A stretch of DNA of 64,000 bases from Candidatus Woesearchaeota archaeon (GCA_016214025.1 JACRPH010000003.1:1814-65813); one strand, 5' to 3'; positions 4,290-56,266 are shown, counted from the first letter of the stretch. Notes: generated from the sequence alone by a model not told the origin. Program-made: numbers and translations.

Positions 4290-4646
4290 ATGGAAGAATT
4301 AATCAATACTTTTGTAGAAGAATACGAAGGGGCCCGGGAACAGTTTGAAAAAGGCAAGTACAAGAATACACTTATTTTGCTTTCTAAAGCTTTATTTGCT
4401 TGGTGTGACGTGCTGTTGTATACCCGATTAAGTAAGCTGCCTGCAAACCATTCTGAACGCTTTAGGATGCTTGAATCTTACTTCCCCGAGGTTTATGTGA
4501 TAGTAGACGAGTTGTTTTCCAGCTACACTGATGCTTATTCTAAGCCGGTGGTGAGTGAAAGTTGTGAGGCATTACAAGATGGAATTCGAAAAATTACCCG
4601 AGTTGCTGAAGTGCCAAAGCGCATTAAAGAACTTGTTGAAAGATAA
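4290..4646 (+). CDS. Small helical protein, HEPN-like partner of the downstream nucleotidyltransferase (tentative)
   Basis: 118 aa, predicted helical, overlapping a minimal nucleotidyltransferase gene. The arrangement resembles HEPN-MNT pairs. No clean Rx4-6H motif was found. Confidence 0.35.
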   Translation: MEELINTFVEEYEGAREQFEKGKYKNTLILLSKALFAWCDVLLYTRLSKLPANHSERFRMLESYFPEVYVIVDELFSSYTDAYSKPVVSESCEALQDGIRKITRVAEVPKRIKELVER

Positions 4647-5130
4647 TATTGTTGACTTTATCCTATTTGGCTCTGTAGTTAAGAGCGGAAGGCCTAGAGA
4701 TATAGATATAGCAATGATAGTGAATGGAGATGCTGGCGCGGGGATTAAAAAAGAAATCCAGGAAGTATTGAATAAACCGGTTGATGTGCAGTTTTTAGAT
4801 GTGAAATCGATTTATTCTTCATTGTGGCTTACTTTAATTAAAGAGGGCTATAGCGTGGCTAAAGAAAAATATTTGTTTGAATTGTATCATATTGCTCCCC
4901 ACGTATTATATAAGTATTCGTTGGCTGAACTAAGTGCGGTGCAGAAGGTGCAATTTGAACGGGGGATTAAGAAAGTGTTAAATAGAGAAGGCAAGGTTAT
5001 TGCCCGGTCAGTTGTTCTAGTGCCCATTCCACTTAAGAATCGTATGCGCGAGTTTCTTAAACAGTGGAAAGTTTATTACGAATGCCAAGAGTACGAGTTG
5101 TTGCCAACCTTGAGGAAAGAAGAGGTGTAG
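4555..5130 (+). CDS. Minimal nucleotidyltransferase (MNT) domain protein
   Basis: 'ILFGSVVKSGRPRDIDIAMIV' is the GS...DxD NTase motif. ATG at 4579 is an alternative start. Confidence 0.6.
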   Translation: MKVVRHYKMEFEKLPELLKCQSALKNLLKDNIVDFILFGSVVKSGRPRDIDIAMIVNGDAGAGIKKEIQEVLNKPVDVQFLDVKSIYSSLWLTLIKEGYSVAKEKYLFELYHIAPHVLYKYSLAELSAVQKVQFERGIKKVLNREGKVIARSVVLVPIPLKNRMREFLKQWKVYYECQEYELLPTLRKEEV

Positions 5131-5278
5131 TGACTATAAAGCTAATGTCCTAAGGGGCGGCGGGGCAGTCACAGAGAGGATGAACGGGCCATGCACATAC
5201 TTTCGAACGGAAGTTTTATAAAGTTGTACTTAATATAGCTAATATATTAGGAAAAACATAATGTTACCGAGGAATTAG

Positions 5279-5845
5279 ATGGTCCATAAAGAAATAGCCA
5301 AATATGAGCCCGAGTTTGGAGATTTGGAAGTTGAAGTCGTGGCAAATAAGTGGTACTTCAAGAAAGAGATAAAACAAGATAAATGGTCGGTAAAAATACT
5401 ATTTTCAAAAAAAGAAGACAAAGCTTCCCTCTTTATCTCAGATGTTGAAGAATGCATAAGATCACTTAACCAACAGTTTGATTTAATTTGTGTTATTCCC
5501 GCGTCAGAGGTGGGAAGTTATTCTCCAACACTCATACCATTAGGAAATATGTGGAGTGAGAAATTTGGAATTCCTTTTGAAAATGTAATCTTAAGAATAG
5601 CCAGACCTATCAAGAAAATGACTGAATGCAAAACTGCAAAAGAAAGATGCCAAGTTCACCGAGGAACATTTGCGTTGAGTAGAAAGTTAAAGCCAAATGA
5701 AAAGATAATACTTTTATTGGATGATATCAAGGCAGAAGGAGACACCAAGCTTATTTGTGCAGAGCTTTTGATCAAAGACGGGGCAAAAATCATAAAAGTA
5801 ATTTGCCTAGGAATTAATACTATGGATGCTTTAAAAACTAATTGA
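5279..5845 (+). CDS. ComF-like phosphoribosyltransferase-fold protein
   Basis: PRPP-binding signature 'IILLLDDIKAEGDT'. Size and adjacency to dprA resemble ComF/ComFC. No N-terminal zinc finger. Confidence 0.55.
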   Translation: MVHKEIAKYEPEFGDLEVEVVANKWYFKKEIKQDKWSVKILFSKKEDKASLFISDVEECIRSLNQQFDLICVIPASEVGSYSPTLIPLGNMWSEKFGIPFENVILRIARPIKKMTECKTAKERCQVHRGTFALSRKLKPNEKIILLLDDIKAEGDTKLICAELLIKDGAKIIKVICLGINTMDALKTN

Positions 5846-5858
5846 TGGGGGGATAAAT

Positions 5859-6776
5859 ATGCTTCAAAAAAAAGAACTGGTAAAATGGATGAAACTAACT
5901 CAGGTTCCAAAACTGGGGCCCAGCAAAATAATGAAGCTATTCCGCCTAATTTCAGACCTAGATAAAATTTTTACCATGGCTGATAATGAGCTGCTCAGGA
6001 CCAGAGTATTTAATGAACCCATGCTTATTGATTTTCATAAATTAAAAGAGGCTTTAGAAGAAAATTTTATTAAAGCTATTTCCGAATGCGAAGAAAATAA
6101 TATTAAAATAATCCCCCTAATTGATAAACGATATCCGGATTTCTTAAAAAATATCCCCTATCCGCCGCTTACTCTTTTCCTAAAAGGAGATTTAAATTTA
6201 TTATATGTTAAAAAAGTTGCTATTGTGGGCAGTAGAAAAGCCGATGAACCCTCCCAAAAGTGGGCTTATAATATTGCCCAAGATTTTGTAAAAAAAGGCT
6301 ATGCCGTAGTGAGCGGCGGAGCAATAGGGATAGATTATTCGGCCCATAAGGGTGCATTAGATGCGAACGGCAAAACCATTTGTGTGTTGGGCTCCGGGTT
6401 CTTCAAGATGTTTCCTGAATGCCACTTAGCTCTATTTCAAGCTATAGCAGAGAAAGGTCTTCTAATCTCGGAACATCTCCCTAATTTTCCCGGTTCAGCT
6501 ATAGCTTTAGTTCAAAGAAATAGAATTACCTCAGGGATATCTGATGCTTTGATTATGGTTGCAAGCGGGGAGAAAGGCGGGGCGATGATTCAAACTAAAA
6601 TTGCGTTCGAGCAAAGGGTTCCTATTTTTTGCCCTGATCGTTCGTTAAATTTACGGCCTAATGTGGGGATACCTCAAGTTATTAATGAGTGGAAAGGCAT
6701 AGAAATAAAATCTTGTGAAGAGGTATTGAAAGTGATAACTTCTCCGGAATCGCAGATAAATTTGAGCCAATTTTAG
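5859..6776 (+). CDS. dprA: DNA processing protein DprA/Smf
   Basis: 'VAIVGSRKADEPSQKWAYNIAQDFVKKGYAVVSGGAIGIDYSAHKGAL' and 'ICVLGSGF' form the DprA Rossmann-like core. Confidence 0.85.
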   Translation: MLQKKELVKWMKLTQVPKLGPSKIMKLFRLISDLDKIFTMADNELLRTRVFNEPMLIDFHKLKEALEENFIKAISECEENNIKIIPLIDKRYPDFLKNIPYPPLTLFLKGDLNLLYVKKVAIVGSRKADEPSQKWAYNIAQDFVKKGYAVVSGGAIGIDYSAHKGALDANGKTICVLGSGFFKMFPECHLALFQAIAEKGLLISEHLPNFPGSAIALVQRNRITSGISDALIMVASGEKGGAMIQTKIAFEQRVPIFCPDRSLNLRPNVGIPQVINEWKGIEIKSCEEVLKVITSPESQINLSQF

Positions 6777-6797
6777 GGAACTATTAATGATACCGGA

Positions 6798-7448
6798 TTG
6801 TGCCGATTAATAGTCCCCAAAAATTGGAAGATGTTAACTCAAGAAAATGTTATAATTGAACCATTTATTCGAAAGCCATGGAAAGCGTTGACCTTCGGAG
6901 AAGTGAAAACGCGGTCTAACAATAAGTCGGATAATTATGTACACACTACTCTAAAAAAGTTGGTTAAAGAAGAAATACTTAAAGAACAAAAAATAGGGAA
7001 TAATATTGTTTACTCCATCAACCAAGCTATTTTCGCTTTAAATACAATCGGTTTTATTGCCGAATTCAAAGCACACCAAGCCAAACACCTGCCGCACAAA
7101 AACATTCAACAGATTATTGGCAAGATAAATAGACCATACTATACTTTTATTATTACGGGAAGCTATGCTAAAAATAAACAAAAAGAAACCTCTGGCGTGG
7201 ATATTGTGGTTATTTGCGATGATCAACAGTCGCCAAATGCTGTATTGTCGCAAATAAAGCTAGAATCAGAGTTAATGGTTCCTGAATTTCATCCCTACGT
7301 ATTTACTCAAGTACAATTTTACGAAATGCTCATCAATAAAGAAGAAAATTATGGCAAAGAGATTGCTAGAAATAATCTTATTATTGCTGGGGGCAGGGAA
7401 TATTATGCCATTTTGCTGGAGGCGGTAAAACATGGATTCAATGGTTAA
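6798..7448 (+). CDS. wHTH plus nucleotidyltransferase domain protein
   Basis: 'IITGSYAKNKQKETSGVDIVVICDD' NTase motif, preceded by a wHTH-like N-terminal region. ATG at 6831 is an alternative start. Confidence 0.55.
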   Translation: MCRLIVPKNWKMLTQENVIIEPFIRKPWKALTFGEVKTRSNNKSDNYVHTTLKKLVKEEILKEQKIGNNIVYSINQAIFALNTIGFIAEFKAHQAKHLPHKNIQQIIGKINRPYYTFIITGSYAKNKQKETSGVDIVVICDDQQSPNAVLSQIKLESELMVPEFHPYVFTQVQFYEMLINKEENYGKEIARNNLIIAGGREYYAILLEAVKHGFNG

Positions 7449-7580
7449 TATCTATTTACCAGATAATTCCTCAAGCGAATAAAGCTCCCGCAGAACTGTC
7501 AGTACAAAACGCATCATTTTTTCTGAAGAATATTAAACTGATTTTAGATAAGCCGAACTGAGCTTAAGTACTGTTGTGGG

Positions 7581-7632
7581 GGTCAAGAATACGAGTTGCT
7601 GCCGGTAATGAAAAGGAAGAGGTGTAAGAACC
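7581..7632 (+). repeat. Degenerate copy of the 3' end of the 4555..5130 nucleotidyltransferase gene
   Basis: 'caagaatacgagttgctgccggtaatgaaaaggaagaggtgta' versus 5086-5129 'caagagtacgagttgttgccaaccttgaggaaagaagaggtgta'. About 70 percent identity by hand alignment; both encode QEYELLP.... Confidence 0.4.
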
Positions 7633-7690
7633 CTACTTTTTTGTTGGAAAAACTCAAAATGGTCGTGCCAAAACTCGAAAAGCTTATATA

Positions 7691-7726
7691 TTACTTAAGG
7701 TTTACTTAAACTTACTTAAAGTTACT
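7691..7726 (+). repeat. 3.5 tandem copies of 'ttacttaa(r)' with 10-11 bp period, between a TATA-like box and the AlbA_2 gene start
   Basis: 'ttacttaagg t ttacttaaa c ttacttaaa g ttact', directly after 'agcttatata' (7681-7690). Confidence 0.6.
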
Positions 7727-7744
7727 ATCAAAGGTTAAAGTAAA

Positions 7745-9127
7745 ATGAAACAAGAAGAACTGTTAGCTCTTATCAAAAACGGAGAAACGCAGGAAGTTGA
7801 GTTGAAAGAAGGTTGTCCCAATGGGCATAAACTGACTGAAATAATCTGCGGTTTAGCTAACACTGACGGCGGATTTCTTATCCTTGGCGTATCAGAAAAA
7901 GGAGAGATAAAAGGATTACAGTGTAATCTTGACAAACTTCAGCAGGATATTGCTAATGCGCGTCAAAGCATTCATTCTTCCCCCCCTGTTTCTACCACAA
8001 TTCATATCATTGAGGATAAGAAAATTGCTCTAGTTGAAATCAATAAAGCCAATGACAAAAATGCTCACACCTATAATGGTGCTGTTTATGTGAGAATTGG
8101 AAGTACTACCCATAAGCTTGAAGGTCAGGAGCTTTTTGATTTTCTTAAAAATAAACAAATCTTATGCTTTGATGAGCAGGATTCAGAAGCAAAAATCGAA
8201 AATCTTGATGAGAATCGAATTAAACTTTATCTCATAAAAAGAGGTCAACCAGATTATTTAAAAGCAAACAATGTCCAAGAGTTCATCATTAGCAACATGT
8301 TTGGCAAGTTAAATGGGAAATTAAAGCTTAAAAACATTGCAGCTTTGTTTTTTGCTAAGGAACCTCATCGCTGGCATCCTCAAAGCGAAGTACGAATAGT
8401 TCGTTTCTCAGGAACAGAACCCATAAACATAGTTGTACAAAGAGATTTTCGTTCTGATCCCATGGAGAATATTGAGCAAACTATCGCGTTTATTAGAGAG
8501 AATATCTCTAAACGGTTTATAATTCCAGAGAATTCTCCAAGACGTATTGAAATTGAAGAATATCCTACATCTGTAATAAGAGAAGCAATTGTAAATGCCG
8601 TAGCCCATAGAGATTATTATAGTTATGATTCTATTCAGATAAATCTCTTTGAAGACAGAATAGAAATTTCTAATCCCGGGGGCTTGCCGCAAGGACTAAC
8701 TAAAGAGTTTTTTGGAAAGCGATCGGTAAGACGCAATCCATTAACATATCGTATCTTAAGAGAAGGTCATTATGTAGAGGGATTGGGTTTAGGTATTCCT
8801 CAAATGAGAAATGAAATGAGGAAAGCCGGACTTAGAGACCCAGAGTTTAATTTTGAAGGGGGATTTTTTGTCGTAACTCTTAGAAATGCCAAAGGCAGCA
8901 TCAAACCAGTGGAAGGGTTAAAAGATTTAAATTCTCGACAGCTTAACGCTTTAGATTATTTAAGACAAAATAAGACTATTAAGTCAAAAACGTATGCGAA
9001 TATCAATGAGGTTTCTTTGCCTATAGCACTTAAAGATATTAATGAACTCATCAAATTCAAATATATTCAGAAAGTTGGTTCGTATAGGGGGGCTTATTAT
9101 GTGTTGAGTGGGGGCGTTTTTAGATGA
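7745..9127 (+). CDS. AlbA_2 (Schlafen-like) plus HATPase_c_4 plus C-terminal wHTH protein
   Basis: N-terminus 'ELLALIKNGETQEVELKEG' is the AlbA_2 motif. The mid region 'IREAIVNAVAHRDY' and 'ISNPGGLP' is HATPase_c_4-like. The C-terminal wHTH is 'LNSRQLNALDYLRQNKTIKSKTYANI'. Confidence 0.8.
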   Translation: MKQEELLALIKNGETQEVELKEGCPNGHKLTEIICGLANTDGGFLILGVSEKGEIKGLQCNLDKLQQDIANARQSIHSSPPVSTTIHIIEDKKIALVEINKANDKNAHTYNGAVYVRIGSTTHKLEGQELFDFLKNKQILCFDEQDSEAKIENLDENRIKLYLIKRGQPDYLKANNVQEFIISNMFGKLNGKLKLKNIAALFFAKEPHRWHPQSEVRIVRFSGTEPINIVVQRDFRSDPMENIEQTIAFIRENISKRFIIPENSPRRIEIEEYPTSVIREAIVNAVAHRDYYSYDSIQINLFEDRIEISNPGGLPQGLTKEFFGKRSVRRNPLTYRILREGHYVEGLGLGIPQMRNEMRKAGLRDPEFNFEGGFFVVTLRNAKGSIKPVEGLKDLNSRQLNALDYLRQNKTIKSKTYANINEVSLPIALKDINELIKFKYIQKVGSYRGAYYVLSGGVFR

Positions 9128-9532: not shown

Positions 9533-11932
9533 ATGGAAATAAAAAGATATGCAAAAAGATTGTTTGCTTTAGGCACGGGAGCATTAATGCTGGGTGCCAC
9601 GGCTATGGGTGCTATGGCCGCTGATTTGAAAGATTATCCGGCGTTCTTGGTGAAGGACGGCTCTTTCAATGGCTATATGGTAGTTGGTGAGAATGCTAAG
9701 CCAATTGATAACTTGGCTATGACTGACATTGCGGCAGGGATGAAATATAAGAAGGCAGCAGAGACGGCTACCACGACGGTGAGTGGAGAGGCTAAGAAAA
9801 TTGAGACTAGCACTGACAACTTTAATATAGGTGATGCTTTTAGTGATATACAGGCAGTTGACTTAGATTTTGAGGATTTGCCCACTACTTTAGCTAAAGG
9901 AACTTACATTAATGATGAAGGCTTAGAATATGACTTTGAACAGGAATTGGCATTTGAGTCTGGAGTGGGAGAATTTGCGTTGTTCTCAGACACAGATTAC
10001 AACGATAAAGAGCCAACTTTAGGAATGAAATTAACTAAAGGAACTGATTTTATAACTTACACGGTAGATTTTACCACCCAACCTTTAAGTGATGCGGGTT
10101 CTTCTGGGGCTCTGCCTGATTTTGAAGACACCTCCCTTAGTATTCTAGGAACAACTTATGATGTTATTGATGCCACTAACAGCTCCACGGACATAACCTT
10201 AACTTTGTTAGGCGGAGCTTTGAAAGACACTTTGTTGTTAGGAGAGAGTAAGACTTTTACGATTGGTGGGAAAGAATACAAAGTAGAAGTAACTTTTGTA
10301 GATGCGGATGATGGAGCTAAGTTTATAGTGAATGGAGAAGCTACTCCTACCCTTGCCGAAGGAATTACCCGAAAGCTTAAAGATGGAACTTTGATTGCAG
10401 TGAAAGAAGTTTTGACCTCCAGCAAAGAGTCTGTTGCAGACCGAGCAGAATTCTACTTAGGAGCTAAAAAGTTAGTCTTAGAGAACGGCGACGAGTTGGA
10501 AGTAGATGATGAAGACGTGGATGGAGTAACAGTAGCAGTTACCGCCTCAGCATCGGGATCTGATATAGCCATGAGTGATATCGTCTTAACATGGGCTCCA
10601 GATGATGATATGTTCATAACTGAAACGAGCAGCGCAGTGTTCCCCGTAGCCGATAGATTTTCGTTTGCATACAAAGGCTTTACCACCGCCGCCAAAGAAA
10701 AGATAACCATAGAGAATAATGGTGATGATGAGATGGCGTTGAACATACCCATTAAATCAGGAAATGCCGAGATTAAGTTATTGGCCTCCACAAATGAGGT
10801 GAACTTTACTTTGATTGGTGGAGCAGATTCTGATGAAGGGTTGAAGACGGTGGCTGGTGCTGCTGCAACTACAGTATGGAACGCCACGAGTCATGAGAAT
10901 ATGGTGGTGACATATATTTCGAGTGGGGCTACTGCGGGAGAGTCTTATCTACTAGAAATAACTAAAATAGACACTACTGACGGAGTAACCTTCAAAGATA
11001 GTGTGAGTAGTGCTAAGTGGGAGGATAAAAAGGCTGCAGACACGTTCAGCGTAGGCAGTGCAACTTTAACCATTAACAGCTTTAACGAAACTACTAATGT
11101 GGTTAACCTTACTGGTGGAGCTGCCACTTACTTTGACCGAGTGATAAGTGACGAAGGGATGACTTTTTACCTACCTATTGCAGGAGCTGCTCAATCAGGA
11201 GGGGGATATACAATTAACACTACCGCCGGAGCTGCAACCTGGATTTTGTATGGTAAAGAAGAAAATAACAATGCTGTTCTTGCAAATGGTAACTTGATAA
11301 ACATAACTATGGATGGCACTGGCGATGTAGAAGTTAGTGCTTTAGCTGGAGCAGGTACTGGTTACGAAATTGCCGATACTGAGGAGTACACGTATTACGT
11401 GACTAGCGCACTCGGAACAAAAGTATTGTTCGACCAAGAGCCCGACCAAGACACTATAGAAATGGAGTATCACGGAGAAGAATCCTATGGTAACTTCTAT
11501 GTGATGGGAAGTGGCGCCTCTACTTCAACTGTTGCTGAAGGCACCTGGACACCTGTAGCTATTGTCGATGCTACCAAGCTGGATAGCGAAGTGGCTGACT
11601 ACAAAGCACAGAACTTAATCGTTGTAGGTGGGCCTTGTGTGAACACCATTGCGGCTTCGTTATTGGGCAACCCCGCGGAGTGCACCACTGGATTTACCGC
11701 CGGAGTAGGCTTAGTGAAGCTGTTCGAGAACGGAGATAAAGTAGCGATGTTAGTAGCCGGATATACCGGAGATGACACCCGAGCCGCAGGCAAGTTTGTA
11801 GCTAACAAGTGGAAAGACTTATCGGGCAAAGAAGTTAACATCGAGACTGCCAGTGGAAGCATAACTACCGTAGCTAAAGTAGAAGCACCAGCAGTAGCAG
11901 CAGAAACACCTGCAGCAACGACCACAGGATAA
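9533..11932 (+). CDS. S-layer (surface layer) protein
   Basis: Signal peptide 'LFALGTGALMLGATAMGAMAADL'. The body is acidic and T/S/G/A-rich with no Cys until the C-terminal 'AQNLIVVGGPCVNTIAASLLGNPAEC' block, which is typical of euryarchaeal S-layer proteins. Followed by a T-tract. Confidence 0.65.
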   Translation: MEIKRYAKRLFALGTGALMLGATAMGAMAADLKDYPAFLVKDGSFNGYMVVGENAKPIDNLAMTDIAAGMKYKKAAETATTTVSGEAKKIETSTDNFNIGDAFSDIQAVDLDFEDLPTTLAKGTYINDEGLEYDFEQELAFESGVGEFALFSDTDYNDKEPTLGMKLTKGTDFITYTVDFTTQPLSDAGSSGALPDFEDTSLSILGTTYDVIDATNSSTDITLTLLGGALKDTLLLGESKTFTIGGKEYKVEVTFVDADDGAKFIVNGEATPTLAEGITRKLKDGTLIAVKEVLTSSKESVADRAEFYLGAKKLVLENGDELEVDDEDVDGVTVAVTASASGSDIAMSDIVLTWAPDDDMFITETSSAVFPVADRFSFAYKGFTTAAKEKITIENNGDDEMALNIPIKSGNAEIKLLASTNEVNFTLIGGADSDEGLKTVAGAAATTVWNATSHENMVVTYISSGATAGESYLLEITKIDTTDGVTFKDSVSSAKWEDKKAADTFSVGSATLTINSFNETTNVVNLTGGAATYFDRVISDEGMTFYLPIAGAAQSGGGYTINTTAGAATWILYGKEENNNAVLANGNLINITMDGTGDVEVSALAGAGTGYEIADTEEYTYYVTSALGTKVLFDQEPDQDTIEMEYHGEESYGNFYVMGSGASTSTVAEGTWTPVAIVDATKLDSEVADYKAQNLIVVGGPCVNTIAASLLGNPAECTTGFTAGVGLVKLFENGDKVAMLVAGYTGDDTRAAGKFVANKWKDLSGKEVNIETASGSITTVAKVEAPAVAAETPAATTTG

Positions 11933-11944
11933 GCCAATAAAGGC

Positions 11945-11967
11945 TTTTTTTTCTTTATTTTTTTTAG
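11945..11967 (+). terminator. Oligo-T tract after the S-layer gene
   Basis: 'cttttttttctttattttttttag' immediately after TAA. Archaeal RNAP terminates on oligo-T runs. Confidence 0.45.
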
Positions 11968-12047
11968 TTTTTCTTCTCAAGTGATTTTAGCCAAACTTCC
12001 CGAGTTAGTAAAGTATTTAAAAGAGAGGAATAATATCTAGAAATAAA

Positions 12048-13250
12048 ATGCCACTTCCAATAAACGCAAAACAATTAATTGAAGAGCACTTAATCGAATC
12101 CGAAAGAATTGAATTAAAAGAAGGATTTAACCCCGAAGCGATAATTCATACTATGTGCGCCTTTGCCAATGATTTCAATAATTGGGGTGGAGGCTATATC
12201 ATTATTGGCGTTGATGACAAAAAAAGGATAATTGGGATAATTGAAACCCAAATCGATTCAATTATGAAAAAAATAGTAGAATTGTCCAATAAGATTCAAC
12301 TGCCGTATTATCCTATTGTTGAGCCAACAAAATACAATAAGAAAAATATTTTAATTTTGTACTGCCCTGGCGGACCTGCAAGGCCGTATAAAGCACCCCA
12401 AGAATTAGGAAGCAGATTTGAGTATAAATATTACATCAGGCACTCGGCTTCAACGGTTATTGCAAATAGAGACGAAGAAAAAGAACTTATAAGCATGTCC
12501 AACCAGATCCCTTATGATGATCAAATAAACCAAAAAGCATCGCTCAGTGATTTAAATCTACGACTGATCAAATCATATTTGCATGATATTAATTCGAAAT
12601 TAGATGCCAACTTATTAAGTTTTAATGAGCTTTGCAGAAGCCTTAATATTGTTGAAGGTCCTAATGAAATGATAAAGCCCAAAAACATAGGGCTGTTATT
12701 CTTCTCTAATGAGCCGGAAAGATACATTAGAACGCCGTGGATAGAGATTACAGTATTCCAAGATAAAATAGGAGATAAATTTAGAGAAGAGAAGTTTTTA
12801 GGGCCAATTCAGAATCAAATCATATCTGCTTTGCAGTATATAAAAAATACAGTAATACAAGAACAAGTTATCAAAGTGCCAAATAAAGCCCAAGCCGTAA
12901 GATTCTTTTCATATCCATATACTGCAATTGAAGAAGCATTAGTTAATGCAGTTTATCATAAGAGTTATGAAATAGATGCTCCGATTGAAGTAAGAATTGA
13001 ACTCGACCGAATAGATATCATTAGTTACCCTGGTCCTCTTCCTCCATTGAATAAAGACAATATTAACGATGCTATCGTAATTTCTAAACGATATAGAAAT
13101 AGAAGAATTGGCGATTTTTTAAAGGAATTAAAGCTTACAGAAGGAAAGAATACGGGATTTAGAAAAATAAGAAACGCGATGGAAGTCAATGGCTCACCTG
13201 CGCCAATATTTATTACAGATGACGAAAGAGTCCAGTTTATTACAAGTTAA
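12048..13250 (+). CDS. AlbA_2 plus HATPase_c_4 protein (second paralogue; wHTH tail detached)
   Basis: 'LIEEHLIESERIELKEG', 'IEEALVNAVYHKSY' and 'ISYPGPLP'. It ends 'ERVQFITS*' five nt after the 141-bp repeat. Confidence 0.8.
   Translation: MPLPINAKQLIEEHLIESERIELKEGFNPEAIIHTMCAFANDFNNWGGGYIIIGVDDKKRIIGIIETQIDSIMKKIVELSNKIQLPYYPIVEPTKYNKKNILILYCPGGPARPYKAPQELGSRFEYKYYIRHSASTVIANRDEEKELISMSNQIPYDDQINQKASLSDLNLRLIKSYLHDINSKLDANLLSFNELCRSLNIVEGPNEMIKPKNIGLLFFSNEPERYIRTPWIEITVFQDKIGDKFREEKFLGPIQNQIISALQYIKNTVIQEQVIKVPNKAQAVRFFSYPYTAIEEALVNAVYHKSYEIDAPIEVRIELDRIDIISYPGPLPPLNKDNINDAIVISKRYRNRRIGDFLKELKLTEGKNTGFRKIRNAMEVNGSPAPIFITDDERVQFITS
13105..13245 (+). repeat. Left copy of a perfect 141-bp direct repeat (3' end of the AlbA_2/HATPase_c_4 gene)
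   Basis: Base-for-base identical to 17419-17559 when read out by hand ('gaattggcgatttttt...gtttattacaa'). Confidence 0.95.
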
Positions 13251-13434
13251 ATCAGAGATCATATTTGGCTTTATTAGATTGAATCCAAAATGTAAAAGGG
13301 CAGATATTGAAAAAAGCACGAAAATTCCTCTTGGAACACTAAAACGATATTTGCAGGAATTAATAAACCAAGGCAGGATTAAAAAAGTCGGACCTGATAA
13401 AACCGGAGGCTATATCACGAGTCCCAGAGAGTGA
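13189..13434 (+). CDS. Detached wHTH domain, out of frame with 12048..13250
   Basis: 'IFGFIRLNPKCKRADIEKSTKIPLGTLKRYLQELINQGRIKKV' resembles the C-terminal wHTH of the 7745..9127 paralogue. The informative part starts right after the repeat edge at 13246. Confidence 0.4.
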   Translation: MAHLRQYLLQMTKESSLLQVKSEIIFGFIRLNPKCKRADIEKSTKIPLGTLKRYLQELINQGRIKKVGPDKTGGYITSPRE

Positions 13435-13467
13435 AAATAATGAACAGAATTTCAAAAATAGCAGCAA

Positions 13468-13563
13468 CTATACTCGATGACATAAATTTTTATACAAAAG
13501 AGTATGTCATCTCCTAATAAGTAAGTGACATTTTGTACAAAAACTAATGTCACTTACTATATT
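13468..13563 (+). promoter_or_regulatory. Repeat element R copy 1: 12-bp inverted repeat next to a TATA-like box, upstream of the Bro-N gene
   Basis: 'agtaagtgacat' (13520-13531) and 'atgtcacttact' (13547-13558), followed by 'atatttatgg'. The ~96-bp element recurs at 16142-16237. Confidence 0.6.
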
Positions 13564-13584
13564 TATGGAAAGGTTTGATGAAAA

Positions 13585-14445
13585 ATGAACTCAGAAAACG
13601 CTTTAATTGTCTTTGAAGGCAAGAATATCCGTAGATTATGGCACAAAGATGAATGGTATTTCTCCATTATAGACATTGTAGCCGTTTTAACTGATAGCTC
13701 CATACCAAAAAGGTACTGGTCTGACTTAAAAGCTAAGCTTCTGGAAGAAGGATTTGAATCGTACGATAAAATCGTACAGTTGAAAATGCCCGCAGAAGAT
13801 GGTAAATTTAGGGAAACTGACAGTGCCAATACAGAAACCATGTTTAGAATAGTCCAATCTATCCCCTCTCCCAAAGTCGAACCATTCAAAAGATGGCTGG
13901 CTCAAGTTGGCTATGAGAGAATCCAAGAAATTGAAAATCCAGAATTAGCACAGGATCGGGCTAAAGGATATTATGAGCTTAAAGGCTACCCTAAAAGCTG
14001 GATTGATAAGCGGTTGAGAGGGATTGCCATAAGGCAGGAATTAACTGATGAATGGAAAAAGAGAGGCATTGAAGAACAGAGAGAATACGCCATTTTAACC
14101 AATGAAATTTCTCAGGCTACTTTTGGAGTACCCATAAAGATTCACAAGGAGATAAAAGGGCTTGAACCAAAATTCAAAAATCAAAATCTGAGAGATCACA
14201 TGACGGACTTAGAGCTTATCTTTTCAATGCTTGGTGAAAGGCTTACTACTGAAGCAACTCGTAAAAAAGATGCCGATGGCTTTGCAGAAGGGTTAGAAGC
14301 AGCCAATGAGGGTGGTACCGTTGCTGGAAGAGCTCGCCGGGATGCCGAAAGAACATTCGGAATTAAAGTTGTTTCTCCAGAAAATTACTTGGATTTAACT
14401 AAAAAGAAAAGAATCGGAAAAGAAACAAATAATAAAAATAGCTAA
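13585..14445 (+). CDS. Bro-N domain protein (prophage antirepressor-like)
   Basis: 'LIVFEGKNIRRLWHKDEWYFSIIDIVAVLTDS...YWSDLKAKL' and 'FKRWLAQVGYERIQEIENPE' match the Bro-N family pattern. Confidence 0.7.
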   Translation: MNSENALIVFEGKNIRRLWHKDEWYFSIIDIVAVLTDSSIPKRYWSDLKAKLLEEGFESYDKIVQLKMPAEDGKFRETDSANTETMFRIVQSIPSPKVEPFKRWLAQVGYERIQEIENPELAQDRAKGYYELKGYPKSWIDKRLRGIAIRQELTDEWKKRGIEEQREYAILTNEISQATFGVPIKIHKEIKGLEPKFKNQNLRDHMTDLELIFSMLGERLTTEATRKKDADGFAEGLEAANEGGTVAGRARRDAERTFGIKVVSPENYLDLTKKKRIGKETNNKNS

Positions 14446-14460
14446 ATTCTCTTGCAACCT

Positions 14461-14530
14461 CAGCAGAAACACCAGCTGTAACTGAATAAGCCGTTAAGGC
14501 TTTTTTTCTTTATTTTTTAAGTTTTTTCTA
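14461..14530 (+). repeat. Copy of the extreme 3' end plus T-tract terminator of the S-layer gene
   Basis: 'cagcagaaacaccagctgtaactgaataagccgttaaggctttttttctttatttttt' versus 11898-11975 'cagcagaaacacctgcagcaacgaccacaggataagccaataaaggcttttttttctttatttttttt'. Confidence 0.7.
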
Positions 14531-14562
14531 AAGAAACATTTTTAAAGAAGCCAATCAATTCC

Positions 14563-14916
14563 TTGTTTATGATAAAAGATGCAGAACTCTTCTTCAAGGT
14601 ATATTCTGGTTTGCCTTTAGGAGAGAGAAAAACCACCATTGCGGTAATAAACAATCAGCCCATTAACTGGAATTTAGCTTATGAAGAAATAAGCAATGAA
14701 ACAGTGTTAGGAAAGAGAATATTAAACACCCTAAAGAGGTTATTGAAAGGCAACAGTGCAAAAGAATCGGTAGAAAAAGCAAAGTCGCTTATGAAGCGGA
14801 ACATATCTAAGTTAAGAACTGATACTTCGCCCGATGCCAAAGATTATGTTCTTTTTTTGTTTAACAATTACTTAGCTCTGTCGTTATTCGGGGATGCCCA
14901 GAAGAAAATACAATAG
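14563..14916 (+). CDS. Small hypothetical protein, N-terminal domain paralogous to 16320..16526
   Basis: Shared pattern 'LP...IAVI..(P).W....EI......GK(R/K)IL..LK.L' with the 68-aa protein. ATG at 14569 is an alternative start. Confidence 0.45.
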   Translation: MFMIKDAELFFKVYSGLPLGERKTTIAVINNQPINWNLAYEEISNETVLGKRILNTLKRLLKGNSAKESVEKAKSLMKRNISKLRTDTSPDAKDYVLFLFNNYLALSLFGDAQKKIQ

Positions 14917-15005
14917 TAGTCGGTGTGTTGCATCAGTAACATGAGGAGACCGCGGTCAAATTTAGCACCAGTAGTAGAAGTCTCAGTTGTAGCAGAAGTA
15001 AGCTG
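14895..15005 (+). repeat. Highly degenerate S-layer gene 3' remnant (LIVVGG segment fused to the tail)
   Basis: 'aatagtagtcggtg' resembles 'aatcgtagtcggtg' at 16117-16130. 'gcaccagtagtagaagtctcagttgtagcagaagtaagc' resembles the S-layer tail 'gcaccagcagtagcagcagaaacacctgcagcaacg'. Confidence 0.35.
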
Positions 15006-15053
15006 GGTAAAAAATTTGATTATTATGGAAAAATGTAAAGATGCTCTTGAAAA

Positions 15054-16076
15054 ATGACCAAAGAACTTGCCATAAAAGACGAAACTAGAGAGTTCTTACT
15101 TTACACTACCCCTAACGGAAAAGTAAAAGTGGAAATATTTCTGCACAACGAAAACATCTGGCTCACTCAGGAAAAAATAGCGTTGTTATTTGGTGTACAA
15201 AGGCCTGCAATAACCAAGCACTTAAAAAACATCTTTGAGAGCAAAGAATTGATAGAACAGTCAGTTAGTTCCATTTTGGAACATACTGCCCAAGACGGTA
15301 AGAAATACCTAACCAAATATTACAATCTCGATGCCATCATTTCCGTAGGATACAGAGTCAATTCGACACAAGCAACCCAATTTCGCATCTGGGCGACTGA
15401 AAAGCTCAAAGAGTATATTATCAAAGGGTTTACTATGGATGATGAAAGACTCAAAAATCCGAATAATGTGTTTGGGAAAGATTTCTTTGAAGAACAATTA
15501 GCTCGGATAAGAGATATTCGATCCAGCGAACGCCGTTTTTATCAAAAAATAACTGATATCTATGCCCAATGCAGTGCAGATTATGACCCCAACAGTGAAA
15601 TTACACAACGATTTTTTGCAATTGTACAAAATAAGCTGCATTGGGCAATCAGCCGCCAAACCGCAGCCGAAATTATCTACTCTCGTGCTGATAGTGAAAA
15701 ACAAAACATGGGTTTGACTAACTGGAAAAATGCCCCTAAAGGACAAATACGGAAATTTGATGTAAGCATTGCAAAAAATTATTTAAACGAAGAAGAACTC
15801 AGCCAACTCAATCGCATTGTTTCGATGTACTTGGATTATGCAGAAATGCAGGCAAATAATCGGAAAATAATGACCATGAAAGACTGGGTCATTAAATTAG
15901 ATGCATTTTTACAATTCAATGAGAAAGATATTCTAACTAATACCGTAACAGTAACGGCTGAGATCGCAAAACAATTTGCAGAAACAGAATTTGAAAGATA
16001 TAAAGTAGTGCAAGATAAGTTGTTTGAATCTGATTTTGACCAAGCCGCTAAAAAACTATTAAAACAAGCTGGATAG
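15054..16076 (+). CDS. RhuM family protein
   Basis: 'VKVEIFLHNENIWLTQEKIALLFGVQRPAITKHLKNIFESKEL' and 'YYNLDAIISVGYRVNSTQATQFRIWATEKLKEYIIKGF' are the canonical RhuM pattern. Confidence 0.8.
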   Translation: MTKELAIKDETREFLLYTTPNGKVKVEIFLHNENIWLTQEKIALLFGVQRPAITKHLKNIFESKELIEQSVSSILEHTAQDGKKYLTKYYNLDAIISVGYRVNSTQATQFRIWATEKLKEYIIKGFTMDDERLKNPNNVFGKDFFEEQLARIRDIRSSERRFYQKITDIYAQCSADYDPNSEITQRFFAIVQNKLHWAISRQTAAEIIYSRADSEKQNMGLTNWKNAPKGQIRKFDVSIAKNYLNEEELSQLNRIVSMYLDYAEMQANNRKIMTMKDWVIKLDAFLQFNEKDILTNTVTVTAEIAKQFAETEFERYKVVQDKLFESDFDQAAKKLLKQAG

Positions 16077-16143
16077 CGAAGTGGCTGACTACAAAGCACA
16101 AAACTTAATCGTAGTCGGTGGATCTGGCGTGAGCACCGTAGCT
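16065..16143 (+). repeat. S-layer gene fragment (encodes KLDSEVADYKAQNLIVVGG...)
   Basis: The 35-nt run 'caagctggatagcgaagtggctgactacaaagcaca' is identical to 11575-11609, then diverges. The RhuM stop codon lies inside this fragment. Confidence 0.85.
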
Positions 16144-16237
16144 ATACTCGATGACATAAATAATTATACAAAATAGTATGTCATCTCCTAATAAGTAAGT
16201 GACACGACGTATAAAAATTAATGTCACTTACTATAAA
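16142..16237 (+). promoter_or_regulatory. Repeat element R copy 2, upstream of the three-gene cassette
   Basis: 'ctatactcgatgacataaat...' with the 11-bp inverted repeat 'agtaagtgaca' (16194-16204) and 'tgtcacttact' (16222-16232), followed by 'ataaatacc'. Confidence 0.6.
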
Positions 16238-16319
16238 TACCACACTCCCCTGAAAGGTGTAAATCACAAAGAAGAATTTGTTCAACGAAAGCTTTATTAA
16301 AAACACTTCATTTTAGCTC

Positions 16320-16526
16320 TTGATGACAGGTGACGACTATACCATTCTCCGAACAAAGTTTCTGAAAGCATTTGCTAATCTCCCGGAAAAAGCAAAATCA
16401 GAAGAGGTTATAGCAGTTATAGATGAGAAACCTTACACCTGGATTGCTGCTACTATAGAAATTAAGAGTGAATCAGCGACAGGAAAAAAAATATTACTAA
16501 TCCTTAAAGAATTAGGCGTCCTATGA
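16320..16526 (+). CDS. Small protein (68 aa), first gene of a coupled three-gene cassette
   Basis: ATG at 16323. The stop overlaps the next start as ATGA (16523-16526). Paralogue of the 14563..14916 N-terminal domain. Confidence 0.5.
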   Translation: MMTGDDYTILRTKFLKAFANLPEKAKSEEVIAVIDEKPYTWIAATIEIKSESATGKKILLILKELGVL

Positions 16527-16750
16527 ATGAAAAAATATCCCGTGAATTGAAAAAAATTGTACTTTGGAGATTAGACACAATTCCCCCTAACTTTAAATTA
16601 TCTATCGGTAATGAGGGCACTTTTACCAAAGAAGAATTGAGACAACACGTAGAAAAAGAGGATCAAATTGGGGTGACTTTTGCTAAAATGCAGCTTAATT
16701 TTATGAAAGCATTAGCCAGCGGTGAATTCTCCAAGACATTATCTGAATGA
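16523..16750 (+). CDS. Small protein (75 aa), second gene of the cassette
   Basis: ATGA overlaps at both ends (16523-16526 and 16747-16750). No motif recognised. Confidence 0.5.
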   Translation: MNEKISRELKKIVLWRLDTIPPNFKLSIGNEGTFTKEELRQHVEKEDQIGVTFAKMQLNFMKALASGEFSKTLSE

Positions 16751-17400
16751 AAACAATCATTACCATGCCGAACTATGATGATGCCACTGCTTACCTTTAT
16801 TGCTATGCTGAAGAATTGGTAAAATTTGCAGAAGAGAAAAATATCCTGATGAGTCAGTTAAAACGTCCAAGATTACGGAGAAATATTCTGGAAGAAAGCA
16901 TACAAAAGCAAAACCCCCCGCTGCTTCTCTTTAATGCGCATGGCGATGAAATTACAATTTATGGCGACAAAATTGAGGGGGAAGAAGAGTATCTTATTCA
17001 AGAGGGAGAGAACCACCAACTTCTTACAGGAAAATTAACCTATGCCAGAGCGTGTAGCGCAGCGGCTTCACTTGGAAAAGCATGCACGCAGAAAGATGGC
17101 TGTTTCATCGGCTACAATCAGCCATTTAGTTTCTGGACAGATACAAGTAGAACGACCACGCCATTAAAAGATAAAGTTGCACAGCTCTTTCTCCAACCTT
17201 CCAATGAATTAGCACTTGCTCTCCTTCGTGGTAAGAGTGCACGTGAAGCAGCAGATACTTTTCTCAATATGTCAAAGAAAAATATTCTCCATCTGCTGGC
17301 GAAACAAGATGAACCCGGAGCAATGGCTTCTGCAATGCTTCTTTGGAATAACATGATGGCACAAGAAGTTCTTGGAAACGAAGAAATGAGATGTTCTTAA
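16747..17400 (+). CDS. Caspase/CHAT-like (clan CD fold) protein, tentative
   Basis: A strand-His-Gly element 'PLLLFNAHGDE' is followed about 45 aa later by a strand-Ala-Cys element 'KLTYARACSAAASLG'. This spacing and order match the clan CD His/Cys dyad. Confidence 0.4.
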   Translation: MKTIITMPNYDDATAYLYCYAEELVKFAEEKNILMSQLKRPRLRRNILEESIQKQNPPLLLFNAHGDEITIYGDKIEGEEEYLIQEGENHQLLTGKLTYARACSAAASLGKACTQKDGCFIGYNQPFSFWTDTSRTTTPLKDKVAQLFLQPSNELALALLRGKSAREAADTFLNMSKKNILHLLAKQDEPGAMASAMLLWNNMMAQEVLGNEEMRCS

Positions 17401-17418
17401 CTGTTAAAACGCCTGGGC

Positions 17419-17559
17419 GAATTGGCGATTTTTTAAAGGAATTAAAGCTTACAGAAGGAAAGAATACGGGATTTAGAAAAATAAGAAACGCGATGGAAGT
17501 CAATGGCTCACCTGCGCCAATATTTATTACAGATGACGAAAGAGTCCAGTTTATTACAA
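17419..17559 (+). repeat. Right copy of the perfect 141-bp direct repeat
   Basis: Identical to 13105-13245. Confidence 0.95.
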
Positions 17560-17606
17560 AAACGAGCAGATATTCAAGAAAGTTCGCTTCGCTCACTAAA
17601 AACTAA
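17419..17606 (+). pseudogene. Orphan 3' remnant of an AlbA_2/HATPase_c_4 gene
   Basis: Encodes 'RIGDFLKELKLTEGKNTGFRKIRNAMEVNGSPAPIFITDDERVQFITKTSRYSRKFASLTKN*' with no upstream body. Confidence 0.7.
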
Positions 17607-17608
17607 TT

Positions 17609-17863
17609 TTACATCCTAATTTCTTTCTTTTTTCTTGGTTTATTAGGTAAGAAGATTAGAATTCCTCTTCCTTTGATATTTCCATGCCACTCCTGTAAGC
17701 TTACGTTCCCCATATCATACAGTTCATAGTGCAGACCATTTAATGAAGAATGCAAGTATAACTTTGACTTAGGATATTCTTTACCATTGCATTTCGTAAT
17801 GTGCTTTGATATTTTGCCTACTTTTAGCAGTTTAATTTCGAAAGGCTTATATGAAAAGACCAC
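17609..17863 (-). CDS. Hypothetical protein (84 aa)
   Basis: ORF only; no motif recognised. Confidence 0.3.
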   Translation of the reverse strand: MVFSYKPFEIKLLKVGKISKHITKCNGKEYPKSKLYLHSSLNGLHYELYDMGNVSLQEWHGNIKGRGILIFLPNKPRKKKEIRM

Positions 17864-18340
17864 TTTACTTTAGAAATAAGCGTAATTCTTAAGCTTTGTG
17901 GCTACAATCGAAGTTATACTTCACTGTATTATTAGGCAGTTCCAAGTGCTCCACACGCTCCATCGGAAAGGGTTTTATACTTTATATACAACTAAAATGT
18001 GCAAAGAGTTTATTTATGCCGCCAGAGAGATAATTCATAGTCAATAGCGACAAAAAAAGTAAAGGTGATGCAGGAAATCCAGAATGGGCATATGCAACTG
18101 TACTAATGATGAAAACAAGACCATTATTGCCCAAACACCTGCTCTTTAGATAATAACTTCCCTTCTTTTTCCTCTCGTAGTGCTAATTCTACTGCTTCTT
18201 TATCCTCAGAATAGGTTACAATTAGCGGGATTAGAGTGGTAAAATAAATACCCCAAATAGGGTAAAGTATTTAAAGTAAAACTATTTATTACCACAAAAA
18301 TGGTAAAAAAGGGGTATTTTACTAGGGGCAGGATTACCAC

Positions 18341-55009: not shown

Positions 55010-55645
55010 TTACAACTCTTCCCTTCCTTTCTTCATTTCCTGCATGGCTTTCTGTATCTCGCCTTTGCCTTCTTTCTCCCCTTGGTCTAACTCAATCAGT
55101 CGTTCTACTTCATCCGCTTCTTTGTCCACGGCTTCAGCTTCCTGCAGCACTGCCGGAGGAACTTGTTTGATGAATGCCTGCTTGGCTTCGGCGCTGGGCA
55201 AATCAAAATACTCAAAGAATTTCTTAATCAATTTTAGCTTAAACGTTCGTCCAAACTTCTCTTTTTCAATGAATCCTTGCTCTTCCAAAGCGCGCATATG
55301 CTCATAAGCCCCCGAGCCTCTTAGCTTAATCACTTCTGACTGCACAATAGGATATCTCCATGCAATTACGGCTAAAGTACCCATCATCGCCGTATCCATT
55401 TCAGTGCTGGAAACAATACTGCTTACTAAAGGAACAAACTCATCTTTAACGGTTAATTTCCATCCATTTTCTTTTTTGACAATCTGTAATGAATGTTCCC
55501 TTTGGGCATAATCCTGCTGTAACTGGGTAATAATTCTTTCTACCTCAGATGCTTCTATTGCACATAAGCTGGCGATTCTTTCGGTAGAAATATCTCTGCC
55601 TACGGCAAACAGTACTGCTTCCACCTTCTTTTCATTAATTTCCAT
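55010..55645 (-). CDS. scpB: Segregation and condensation protein B
   Basis: 'VEAVLFAVGRDISTERIASL', 'GWKLTVKDEF' and a second wHTH 'LAVIAWRYPIVQSEVIKLRG'. Confidence 0.75.
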   Translation of the reverse strand: MEINEKKVEAVLFAVGRDISTERIASLCAIEASEVERIITQLQQDYAQREHSLQIVKKENGWKLTVKDEFVPLVSSIVSSTEMDTAMMGTLAVIAWRYPIVQSEVIKLRGSGAYEHMRALEEQGFIEKEKFGRTFKLKLIKKFFEYFDLPSAEAKQAFIKQVPPAVLQEAEAVDKEADEVERLIELDQGEKEGKGEIQKAMQEMKKGREEL

Positions 55646-56228
55646 TCTCTTTTCCGTTTTCTTTGAGTAGGAAATAAACCCCTTCTTTTAAATCTACCTT
55701 CTTCTCATCAATCAGCTTATCCAAAAAATCTTCCACTTTATCTAACGGAACTCCGGTCAGCTTGGCTAATTGTTCTGATGTCATCGCTCCTCTGCTTCCC
55801 AATAATACTTGGATATAATTCCGCAGCAATAAGCTCATATTTTTCAGGATATGCTCATTTTCCAGCTTTAACTGCTTGGCTATCATATCGATATTATGCA
55901 GTTTTCCTTGCATTTCGGTCAGAAAGGTAGATGCTTCCACATCGGTGAAGTTTAATTGCTCCGGTCCGATTATCTCTATAATAGAAGGCATGTACTCAAA
56001 GCAGAACGCCATGATATGGGATAAGCTTTCTGTTTCCAATTCCATTTCTACAAAGGTTGACCATAATTCTACCCCTTCCTGCTGCCTGATTTCAGCATAT
56101 TCCTCGCTCAGCACTTTATACTTAGAATCTTGCTTCAGCTTGGTGATATAATTCTTAAAGGTGCTTTCTACATGCTCTTTAGGTTTTCCCAGCACTTCGA
56201 TGATGCTTCTAAAGGTTATTTTGCTCAT
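55635..56228 (-). CDS. Hypothetical protein with a C-terminal wHTH, co-operonic with scpB
   Basis: 11-nt overlap with scpB. 'MTSEQLAKLTGVPLDKVEDFLDKLIDEKKV' is wHTH-like. It occupies the position where scpA often sits, but no ScpA motifs were recognised. Confidence 0.4.
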   Translation of the reverse strand: MSKITFRSIIEVLGKPKEHVESTFKNYITKLKQDSKYKVLSEEYAEIRQQEGVELWSTFVEMELETESLSHIMAFCFEYMPSIIEIIGPEQLNFTDVEASTFLTEMQGKLHNIDMIAKQLKLENEHILKNMSLLLRNYIQVLLGSRGAMTSEQLAKLTGVPLDKVEDFLDKLIDEKKVDLKEGVYFLLKENGKENGN

Positions 56229-56266
56229 GGAAGCAGTAAATAAGAGGGTATTTTTTAAGCCTTTCT

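Follow-up and report, generated by a model that had tools for sequence, protein, structure and literature searches.

Within a 64-kb window of the genome of a groundwater Candidatus Woesearchaeota archaeon (GCA_016214025.1 JACRPH010000003.1:1814-65813; "the window" denotes this whole stretch, and positions are counted from its first letter), a 141-bp block from the 3' region of an AlbA_2/HATPase_c_4 gene is present in two identical copies, which bracket a group of accessory genes located downstream of an S-layer protein gene. The explanation that we tentatively prefer, at a probability somewhat short of even, is that this pair constitutes a recent recombination scar in an accessory/defence island adjacent to the S-layer gene and that it was made by the homologous recombination of the host. 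A preliminary description of the region had proposed either a single decayed or non-autonomous integrated element with attL/attR-like ends or an island built by homologous recombination, and it is the latter proposal that best fits the mosaic organization presented below.

Duplication of the AlbA_2 gene 3' region

The stretches 13105-13245 and 17419-17559 agree at 141 of 141 positions and lie in direct orientation, just as the preliminary description had read them, and the edges of the identity are abrupt (A at 13104 vs. C at 17418, and G at 13246 vs. A at 17560). Apart from a tandem array at 56.27-56.47 kb, the remaining exact repeats of at least 25 nt found in the 64 kb measure only 36, 30, and 26 nt and, since these are so short, the 141-bp repeat is far beyond chance expectation. 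The duplicated block is the best-conserved stretch of the AlbA_2 gene, with 86% nucleotide identity to locus L002 and 85.5% to locus L087 (82% and 80%, respectively, for the whole gene), which makes it a natural homology anchor.

It was previously assumed that the left copy represents the end of the AlbA_2/HATPase_c_4 gene. It is indeed placed inside the 3' region of this gene, but it is not the natural end, as homologs continue through a linker into a winged helix-turn-helix (wHTH) domain. In close homologs (75-91% aa identity), which are 479-496 aa long, the segment ending with VQFIT is followed by a repetitive linker (RLKIHP..EPLNEPLNEP) and then by the winged-helix domain. Alignments revealed that about 65 nt of this linker are gone from the gene in the window, and that the loss begins no more than 1 nt from the right end of the repeat. 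The stop codon of the left gene falls 5 nt after the repeat, and the resulting product of 400 aa in total (identical to NCBI MBI4979993.1) shares 91% of its amino acids with the intact 482-aa protein P0121. Exact-protein look-ups for the 400-aa product, for the 71-aa junction open reading frame (ORF), and for the 84-aa ORF described below returned no record. The wHTH domain itself is retained as an ORF whose product is 68-76% identical to the C-terminal parts of P0121, P0002, and P0003. Either the gene has very recently become a pseudogene or has been split, or the linker (at 13236-13260) was lost during assembly.

The right copy begins 5 nt past the end of a three-gene cassette, and no AlbA_2 sequence was found upstream of it. 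It is spanned by the ORF 17391-17606, which reads through to VQFITKTSRYSRKFASLTKN before its stop codon; this agrees with the earlier view of an orphan remnant, with the correction that the tail of this ORF enters the terminus of an insertion sequence (IS)-like element of the IS91 family, located at 17575-17991. The junction 17418/17419 exists in reads and the orphan copy is real: the Logan contig L004 (run SRR12113395) corresponds to 16206-17448 and includes exactly the first 30 nt of the repeat, an end that indicates a branch, as in a k=31 graph, where two contexts enter one sequence.

The 19 nt that follow the right copy (AAACGAGCAGATATTCAAG) match 13294-13316 at 19 of 23 positions, this counterpart lying 48 nt further into the flank of the left copy. 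The wHTH-like score obtained after the right copy was equalled by 0.15% of shuffles and by 0.6% of genomic control windows, which is suggestive only of a wHTH remnant of 15-19 nt; sequence from 17575 onward overlaps a mobile unit shared with nine other contigs (L093-L101). A longer decayed wHTH tail of about 50 nt, considered at one stage, was for this reason cut to 15-19 nt. The last four of the 19 nt read CTTG on the minus strand and abut the IS-like element.

Mosaic organization of the region downstream of the S-layer gene

The region of about 6 kb between the stop codon of the S-layer gene and approx. 18.0 kb (about 11.97-18.0 kb) is made up of sharply bordered modules that form a mosaic (Table 1). 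In agreement with the preliminary description, the duplicated gene 3' region brackets accessory genes, and gene calling together with fragment matches placed Bro-N, RhuM, two small-protein cassettes, and S-layer debris in the 4.2 kb between the copies; the calls for the AlbA_2/HATPase_c_4, Bro-N, and RhuM genes hold by Pfam. This gene content is the accessory set that accompanies AlbA_2 genes in relatives: Bro-N flanks AlbA_2 in L020-L024, RhuM precedes it in L016 and L007, and in L002 AlbA_2 sits within a type I restriction-modification (R-M) operon. Both Bro-N and RhuM gave full-length matches to PADLOC candidate defence genes (Table 1), and the accessory genes are probably involved in anti-virus defence.

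Individual modules have relatives of their own. The Bro-N segment shows 96.4% nucleotide identity to L003 (4333-5190), with the limits of homology only a few nt from the ORF, whereas the values between the window and L003 are only about 82-83% for the helicase and the 3' end of the S-layer gene, which suggests a recent transfer of the single Bro-N gene. The two loci are syntenic in that both have the S-layer gene after a DEAD helicase, and in L003 the S-layer gene is followed directly by Bro-N, with neither an AlbA_2 gene nor the intergenic module IG1 between them. The intact three-gene cassette (o68-o75-o217) has its closest counterpart in L088, another Woesearchaeota metagenome-assembled genome (MAG), where it is inserted between TruD and an acetyltransferase gene; the homology runs from 1 nt before the first ORF (16320) to 13 nt past the last stop codon. 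Its products (about 68, 75, and 217 aa) had no matches in Pfam, NCBIfam, or PHROG. The decayed cassette contains o117, which matches o61 of L087 over residues 1-58 (79% aa identity) and residues 155-211 of L087 o211 (93% aa identity); o117 and o68 are related as well (40% protein identity). The short DUF1016/YhcG-type fragment is 82% identical (aa) to residues 105-121 of the YhcG homolog encoded in the type I R-M operon of L002, which hints that a part of the island came from an R-M-associated gene set. Of the Logan contigs, L001 matches 14092-16094 at 100%, and L004 covers the intact cassette.

The 3' end of the S-layer gene is the source of fragments strewn downstream of it, and the stop codon of the RhuM gene falls within one of them. 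In L087, S-layer 3' fragments are followed by a paralogous three-gene cassette (1424-2454), an S-layer tail, and an intact AlbA_2 gene encoding the 482-aa ortholog (91% aa identity). As S-layer 3'-end pieces flank the cassette and the AlbA_2 gene there (1120-1320, 2522-2610, and 4648-4676), on a contig carrying no S-layer gene, the modules appear to carry the S-layer end along with them.

The IG1 module, present in two copies, consists of two TGACAT-N15-20-ATGTCA palindromes around a TATA-like sequence. Within the window the motif is confined to these modules (3 matches vs. 0.05 expected), and the module folds into two hairpins (DNA fold z = -6.6). IG1 is probably an operator/promoter shared by Bro-N and the three-gene cassette.

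Altogether, four direct-repeat pairs interleave in the region and none of them is nested. The three pairs other than the 141-bp one are 77-90% identical. The complete identity of the 141-bp pair, set against these values, argues for its recency, and the three older interleaved pairs, together with the gene fragments, argue for repeated events at one place.

Table 1. Features of the S-layer-adjacent region; positions refer to the 64-kb window
Feature	Position	Strand	Remarks
S-layer protein gene, 799 aa	9533-11932	+	Pfam S_layer_C, E 5e-16; upstream anchor of the variable region
AlbA_2/HATPase_c_4 gene, cut to 400 aa	12048-13250	+	Pfam; homologs 479-496 aa
Left copy of the 141-bp repeat	13105-13245	+	Codons 353-399 (RIGDFL...VQFIT), end of the HATPase_c_4 domain
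Winged-helix C-terminal domain of the AlbA_2 gene	13246-13434	+	Pfam HTH_24; intact 62-codon ORF, +1 frame
IG1, 94-bp palindromic intergenic module	13468-13561	.	Upstream of Bro-N; 90% to 16142-16235
Bro-N/DinD-like cassette	13579-14436 (gene 13585-14445)	+	Pfam Bro-N; PADLOC PDC-S13, E 1.8e-116
Orphan S-layer last codons and T-rich terminator	14461-14527	+	77% to 11898-11972; 88.6% to the L003 S-layer tail
Decayed three-gene cassette	14502-14966	+	o117 (14563-14916), a deletion fusion of the first-gene N-terminus and the third-gene C-terminus
17-codon DUF1016/YhcG-type fragment	15004-15054	+	Directly 5' of RhuM
RhuM-family gene	15054-16076	+	Pfam Virulence_RhuM, E 1.6e-109; PADLOC PDC-S05, E 7.7e-148
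Orphan internal S-layer fragment, codons 682-707	16065-16142	+	87-89% to 11575-11652, 36 nt exact; fused to IG1'
IG1', second copy of the module	16142-16235	.	Upstream of the three-gene cassette
Intact three-gene cassette o68-o75-o217	16319-17413	+	90.4% nt to L088 9573-10667
Right copy of the 141-bp repeat	17419-17559	+	Orphan stub, 5' part of the gene absent
19 nt after the right copy	17560-17578	+	Possible decayed wHTH remnant ("KRADI")
417-bp non-autonomous IS91-family element	17575-17991	-	Conserved 84-aa ORF (17609-17863); distal edge of the mosaic

Several further observations concern the surroundings of the mosaic. Upstream of the S-layer gene, the block 4290-9127 contains two nucleotidyltransferase (MNT-like) genes, DprA, and a second AlbA_2/HATPase_c_4 paralog (28% aa identity to the first one). 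The interval between the helicase and the S-layer gene has about 5.4 kb in the window and about 1 kb in L003, and the MNT/DprA/AlbA_2 block is absent from the latter; thus both sides of the S-layer gene are variable. The Logan contigs L005 and L006, originating from two different runs, both start at 18080, and other Logan contigs start at 14092 and 16206. No exact repeat in the window accounts for these three starts, which may reflect population-level breakpoints or repeats located elsewhere in the genome. The tandem array mentioned above (56266-56470) is composed of near-exact repeats with a period of about 50 nt and exact stretches of up to 91 nt, and it is located between a 197-aa gene (55635-56228; a weak, sub-threshold match to TrmB) and a gene for a lamin-tail-domain protein (56503-58710).

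A recombination scar as the tentatively preferred explanation

The island may have been built stepwise by host recombination that moved compact cassettes (i.e., Bro-N, RhuM, the three-gene cassette, and the AlbA_2 gene itself) between related genomes. Short conserved pieces of neighbouring genes would act as homology anchors on one side, illegitimate joins would seal the other side, and every such step would leave a duplicated gene end or gene fragment as a scar. For the 141-bp pair, a circularized fragment from a close relative would have borne the AlbA_2 3' region together with cassettes, and a single Campbell-type crossover with the resident AlbA_2 gene would have duplicated the sole collinear block, bounded on the left by the end of the fragment and on the right by the indel-prone repetitive linker. 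No dedicated recombinase would be required for this. RadA would now be able to recombine the two copies, by which a 4.3-kb circle could be lost or formed anew. We infer the circular intermediate, as well as the direction and the order of events, and the 141-bp pair would be the youngest of the scars. The adjacency of a cassette followed by AlbA_2 is a recurrent one, as the same order is found in L087.

Several points weigh against this scenario. The deletion in the linker starts within 1 nt of the end of the homology in the right copy, a coincidence that a simple Campbell insertion would not predict. The flank that follows the right copy, if it is homologous at all, is far more diverged than the repeat, and a recombination breakpoint would be needed exactly there. 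The length of the repeat equals the largest k of the 21-141 k-list used with MEGAHIT 1.2.9, and it is the scaffolder on which one has to rely for where exactly the repeat ends and for how the 4.3-kb loop is threaded. Moreover, an IS91-family element lies 15 nt away, so that a transposase-linked origin has to be weighed as well. Finally, the searches described below yielded neither an empty site nor a circular junction, and no variant from the same species.

An older origin of the right copy was also considered: a second AlbA_2 gene once located after the cassette would have lost 1.06 kb at the 5' end and the greater part of its tail, and the surviving block would have been overwritten from the resident paralog by gene conversion. 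Such a history would be in line with the cassette-then-AlbA_2 order of L087 and with the RhuM-then-AlbA_2 order of L016 and L007, and the weak wHTH likeness after the right copy would suit an old remnant. The structural breakpoints on both sides, which make the repeat the entire collinear block, would be accommodated too. Conversion tracts, however, usually spare the outermost homology, and with a lineage divergence of about 15% an identity running from edge to edge over 141 nt would be unusual; furthermore, the putative remnant comprises only 15-19 nt and overlaps the target site of the IS-like element. We therefore consider this refreshed stub distinctly unlikely.

Repeat length and assembly

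The coincidence between the length of the repeat and the assembler setting weakens the claim of a perfect att-like repeat. We take the 21-141 list to be the default of MEGAHIT 1.2.9. It follows from the logic of de Bruijn graphs that one 141-mer never occurs twice within a unitig, so that at least three contigs must have been joined at the repeat node to give the scaffold. As regards the provenance of the data, Logan contigs identical to the window come from the runs SRR12113395 and SRR12113407, and those with the L088-type cassette from SRR12113418, SRR12113428, and SRR12113384. The accession table of He et al. 2021 (PRJNA640378) includes the genome of L088 (JACPTB); in that study, MEGAHIT v1.2.9 with default settings was followed by IDBA-UD scaffolding. 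Given this listing and the placement of the Logan runs in one accession block, He et al. 2021 is likely the source study and MEGAHIT 1.2.9 likely the assembler. In the k-list used with this version 141 is the last entry, and where contigs break at a repeat, their ends have a sequence of the maximal k in common.

It is thus conceivable, though we regard it as unlikely, that the four junctions are real and that the path of the scaffold through the 141-mer node is wrong or incomplete. In one version, the 4.3-kb loop would exist as a free circle or as a tandem array, or else represent a strain variant, and A-R-D would be the order on the chromosome (R denoting the repeat). In another one, the true repeat would be longer, comprising the repeat plus the linker, and the same approx. 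65 nt would have been lost at both joins, the AlbA_2 gene being intact; TTTATTACA/TTTATTACAAGA would then run on into the linker (AGAYTRAAGATTCATCC...GAGCC...). Real repeats have no reason to measure exactly k. Both copies break at one nucleotide, both downstream flanks lie in the same +1 frame, and the wHTH ORF is undamaged, as are all close homologs of the gene; a loss of about 65 nt at both joins, if it occurred, would explain the shared breakpoint, the shared frame, and the intact wHTH ORF together.

On the other hand, the junction and the branch at the left edge of the right copy were seen in an independent k=31 assembly. Since a MEGAHIT contig contains no 142-mer that is lacking from the input, R-C and R-D are expected to be genuine junctions. 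A free circle is a topology that scaffolding with paired ends would as a rule not accept, and we know of no scaffolder behaviour that would remove exactly the inner part of a short repeat contig twice, at both joins. When wHTH fragments of 100% identity that carry the linker were searched for, only relatives at no more than 77% identity were returned, which favours neither side.

The IS91-family element at the right edge

The 417-bp unit adjacent to the right copy was found (83.5% nucleotide identity) in nine contigs with unrelated flanks (L093-L101), where it always spans from TTGTATATAAAGTAT to ...GAGCGAAGCGAACTTTCTTG; there is one copy of it in the window. An IS present in L093 and L094 (3-1251 in L093) encodes a transposase with Zn_Tnp_IS91 and Y2_Tnp domains and has the same two termini (TTGTATATAAAGTAT ... 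CTTTCTTG). The small unit (1252-1669 in L093) directly follows the terminal CTTG of this IS. All copies of the unit finish with ...CTTTCTTG, and no flanking target duplications were seen. Elements of the IS91 family have an oriIS end beside a CTTG/GTTC target and a terIS at the other end, produce no target duplication, and may carry along DNA located beyond terIS in one-ended transposition (PMC13181058). As it shares termini with the Y2 IS, ends at CTTG, and lacks a duplication, the unit 17575-17991 is assigned to non-autonomous IS91-family elements. Homologs of its 84-aa ORF are annotated in Woesearchaeota and Nanoarchaeia MAGs. A conserved hairpin in the IS terminus was also considered and rejected, as folding gave no support for it.

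A distance of 15 nt separates the oriIS/CTTG end of the element from the right copy. Read as the reverse complement, the right end of the repeat, TTGTAATAAAC, is two edits from the terIS-end motif of the family, TTGTATATAAAG, at the breakpoint of both copies. These features would fit a rolling-circle by-product, in which a Y2 (IS91-family) transposase acting in trans cut at a cryptic end in the AlbA_2 gene, copied 141 nt beside the resident element, and left the linker deletion behind. IS91-family elements are known to mobilize adjacent DNA without target duplications (PMC13181058), and a single event of this kind would account for the break at the same nucleotide in both copies. The repeat, however, is next to oriIS/CTTG, at the end of the element opposite to the terIS beyond which DNA is taken along in one-ended transposition, and the border 13105/17419 has neither a CTTG/GTTC-type site nor an end-like sequence; one-ended transposition was rejected on these grounds as the source of the 141-bp copy. 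The end motif is AT-rich and TATA-like and was noticed post hoc (TTGTAATAAAC-like sites number 19 in the 128 kb of both strands), a hairpin at the terminus is unsupported by folding, and no transposase was found in the window. Hence, we judge a rolling-circle origin very improbable.

Tests for an integrative element

ORFs of at least 100 aa from across the 64-kb window were submitted to a Pfam domain scan, which revealed no integrase, transposase, or replication gene; the preliminary description had reported this lack, and it holds for these ORFs across the 64 kb. The contig is chromosomal, carrying GyrA, ScpB, RPA, and the S-layer gene, and neither a tRNA nor a tmRNA that could serve as a target is present in the window. 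None of the 80 loci recovered from the JGI metagenomes with the AlbA_2 query had a second near-identical 3' end, and none belonged to the same species. The S-layer query against the GTDB genomes retrieved one relative (L003), which is syntenic upstream and rearranged downstream and has no empty site. A comparison with related genomes, proposed earlier as a way of finding an unoccupied site, thus yielded none, either in L003 or among the 80 AlbA_2 loci.

Searches for a viral or plasmid source were similarly negative. A degenerate pattern of 64 nt of the repeat found nothing in viral_contigs or metagenome_contigs, and blastn of 13105-17991 against phage and plasmid collections matched only RhuM (64-67%); an origin from a known virus or plasmid was rejected on this basis. 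An integron or attC array was rejected as well: there is no IntI, and IG1 occurs in two copies, upstream of genes, and lacks RYYYAAC...GTTRRRY ends. Nothing was found in Rfam on the attC question. Nor is there a type I R-M locus in the window, the 17-codon DUF1016 fragment being its only trace.

Site-specific integration, with the 141 bp as attL and attR in the 3' part of AlbA_2 and with an integrase supplied in trans from elsewhere, is the least probable of the explanations weighed here. Its form fits, since direct repeats of a gene 3' region surround foreign genes, and the window represents 64 kb of the genome, which leaves room for a trans-acting integrase. From among the features of att-bounded elements, the duplicated target-gene repeat was found, whereas an encoded integrase, a restored gene, and a coherent unit were not. 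The end borne by the element does not restore the target gene, as the left gene is frameshifted at the junction, and the interior is not a single element, because its parts occur separately in L003, L087, and L088. The absence of a tRNA from the window, the lack of duplicated 3' ends among the AlbA_2 loci, and the restriction of matches in virus, phage, and plasmid collections to RhuM speak against such an insertion as well. The view of one decayed or non-autonomous integrated element is consequently not supported, in the light of the scattering of its parts among relatives, the interleaving of older repeats, and the broken target gene.

Comparison with known systems and significance

An island with recombination scars, be it genomic or defence-related, is a known kind of thing, and the region shares features with several described systems. 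Like islands and elements flanked by att sites in the 3' ends of genes or tRNAs, it has direct repeats of a 3' region around acquired accessory genes, and recombination between the copies would excise a circle. Unlike them, it has no integrase, its target gene is not reconstituted, and its mosaic interior moves in parts; the repeat starts in the middle of a domain and ends at an internal linker, and older repeats of other genes interleave with it.

In complex class 1 integrons, partial duplications of the 3'-conserved segment flank ISCR1 (an IS91-like element) and captured genes, and the accepted model for them involves circular intermediates rescued by homologous recombination in the duplicated segment. 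A partial gene-end duplication around captured genes near an IS91-family element is common to both cases. Here, however, the repeat pair does not enclose the IS-like element, which is non-autonomous and faces the pair with its oriIS end; neither an integron integrase nor attC sites are present, and the host is a DPANN archaeon.

The gene content (AlbA_2/Schlafen-like, RhuM, Bro-N/DinD-like, DUF1016, and nucleotidyltransferases) is that of defence islands and of the sets of genes hitch-hiking with type I R-M systems, but no R-M subunits, apart from the fragment of DUF1016, are encoded at the locus, which is anchored to the S-layer gene. Hypervariable "metagenomic islands" adjoin cell-surface genes in archaeal and bacterial populations. 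The region resembles them in its accessory part situated beside the S-layer gene, in the remnants of other S-layer alleles, and in the turnover of cassettes exceeding the divergence of the core, whereas variability at the population level is here only hinted at by the breaks of Logan contigs.

What is new is the sharing of cassettes between species of DPANN archaea at 90-96% identity, the S-layer-tail fragments that travel with modules, and the IS91-family pair, i.e., an autonomous IS and a non-autonomous unit, the latter found in this archaeal MAG. The analysis documents this IS91-family (Y2 HUH) IS and its non-autonomous partner in groundwater metagenome contigs.

A more far-reaching idea, which we consider distinctly unlikely, is that the duplicated gene ends are no accidents and that DPANN archaea harbour a recombinase-free form of mobility. 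Compact accessory or defence cassettes would use short pieces of the 3' ends of conserved host genes (the S-layer tail or the HATPase_c_4 part of AlbA_2) as portable anchors, enter and leave the chromosome as small circles through RadA, stack in tandem 3' of the S-layer gene, and spread across Woesearchaeota species; the 141-bp pair would then mark where a 4.3-kb module is active at present.

It should be stressed that a perfect repeat as long as the k of an assembler needs verification with reads before conclusions on att sites or recent events are drawn from it. If the structure is real, the region is a worked example of the turnover of accessory and probable anti-virus genes beside the S-layer gene in a genome-reduced, host-dependent DPANN archaeon, a turnover that would proceed without integrases and in which gene-end scars would log the successive recombination events.

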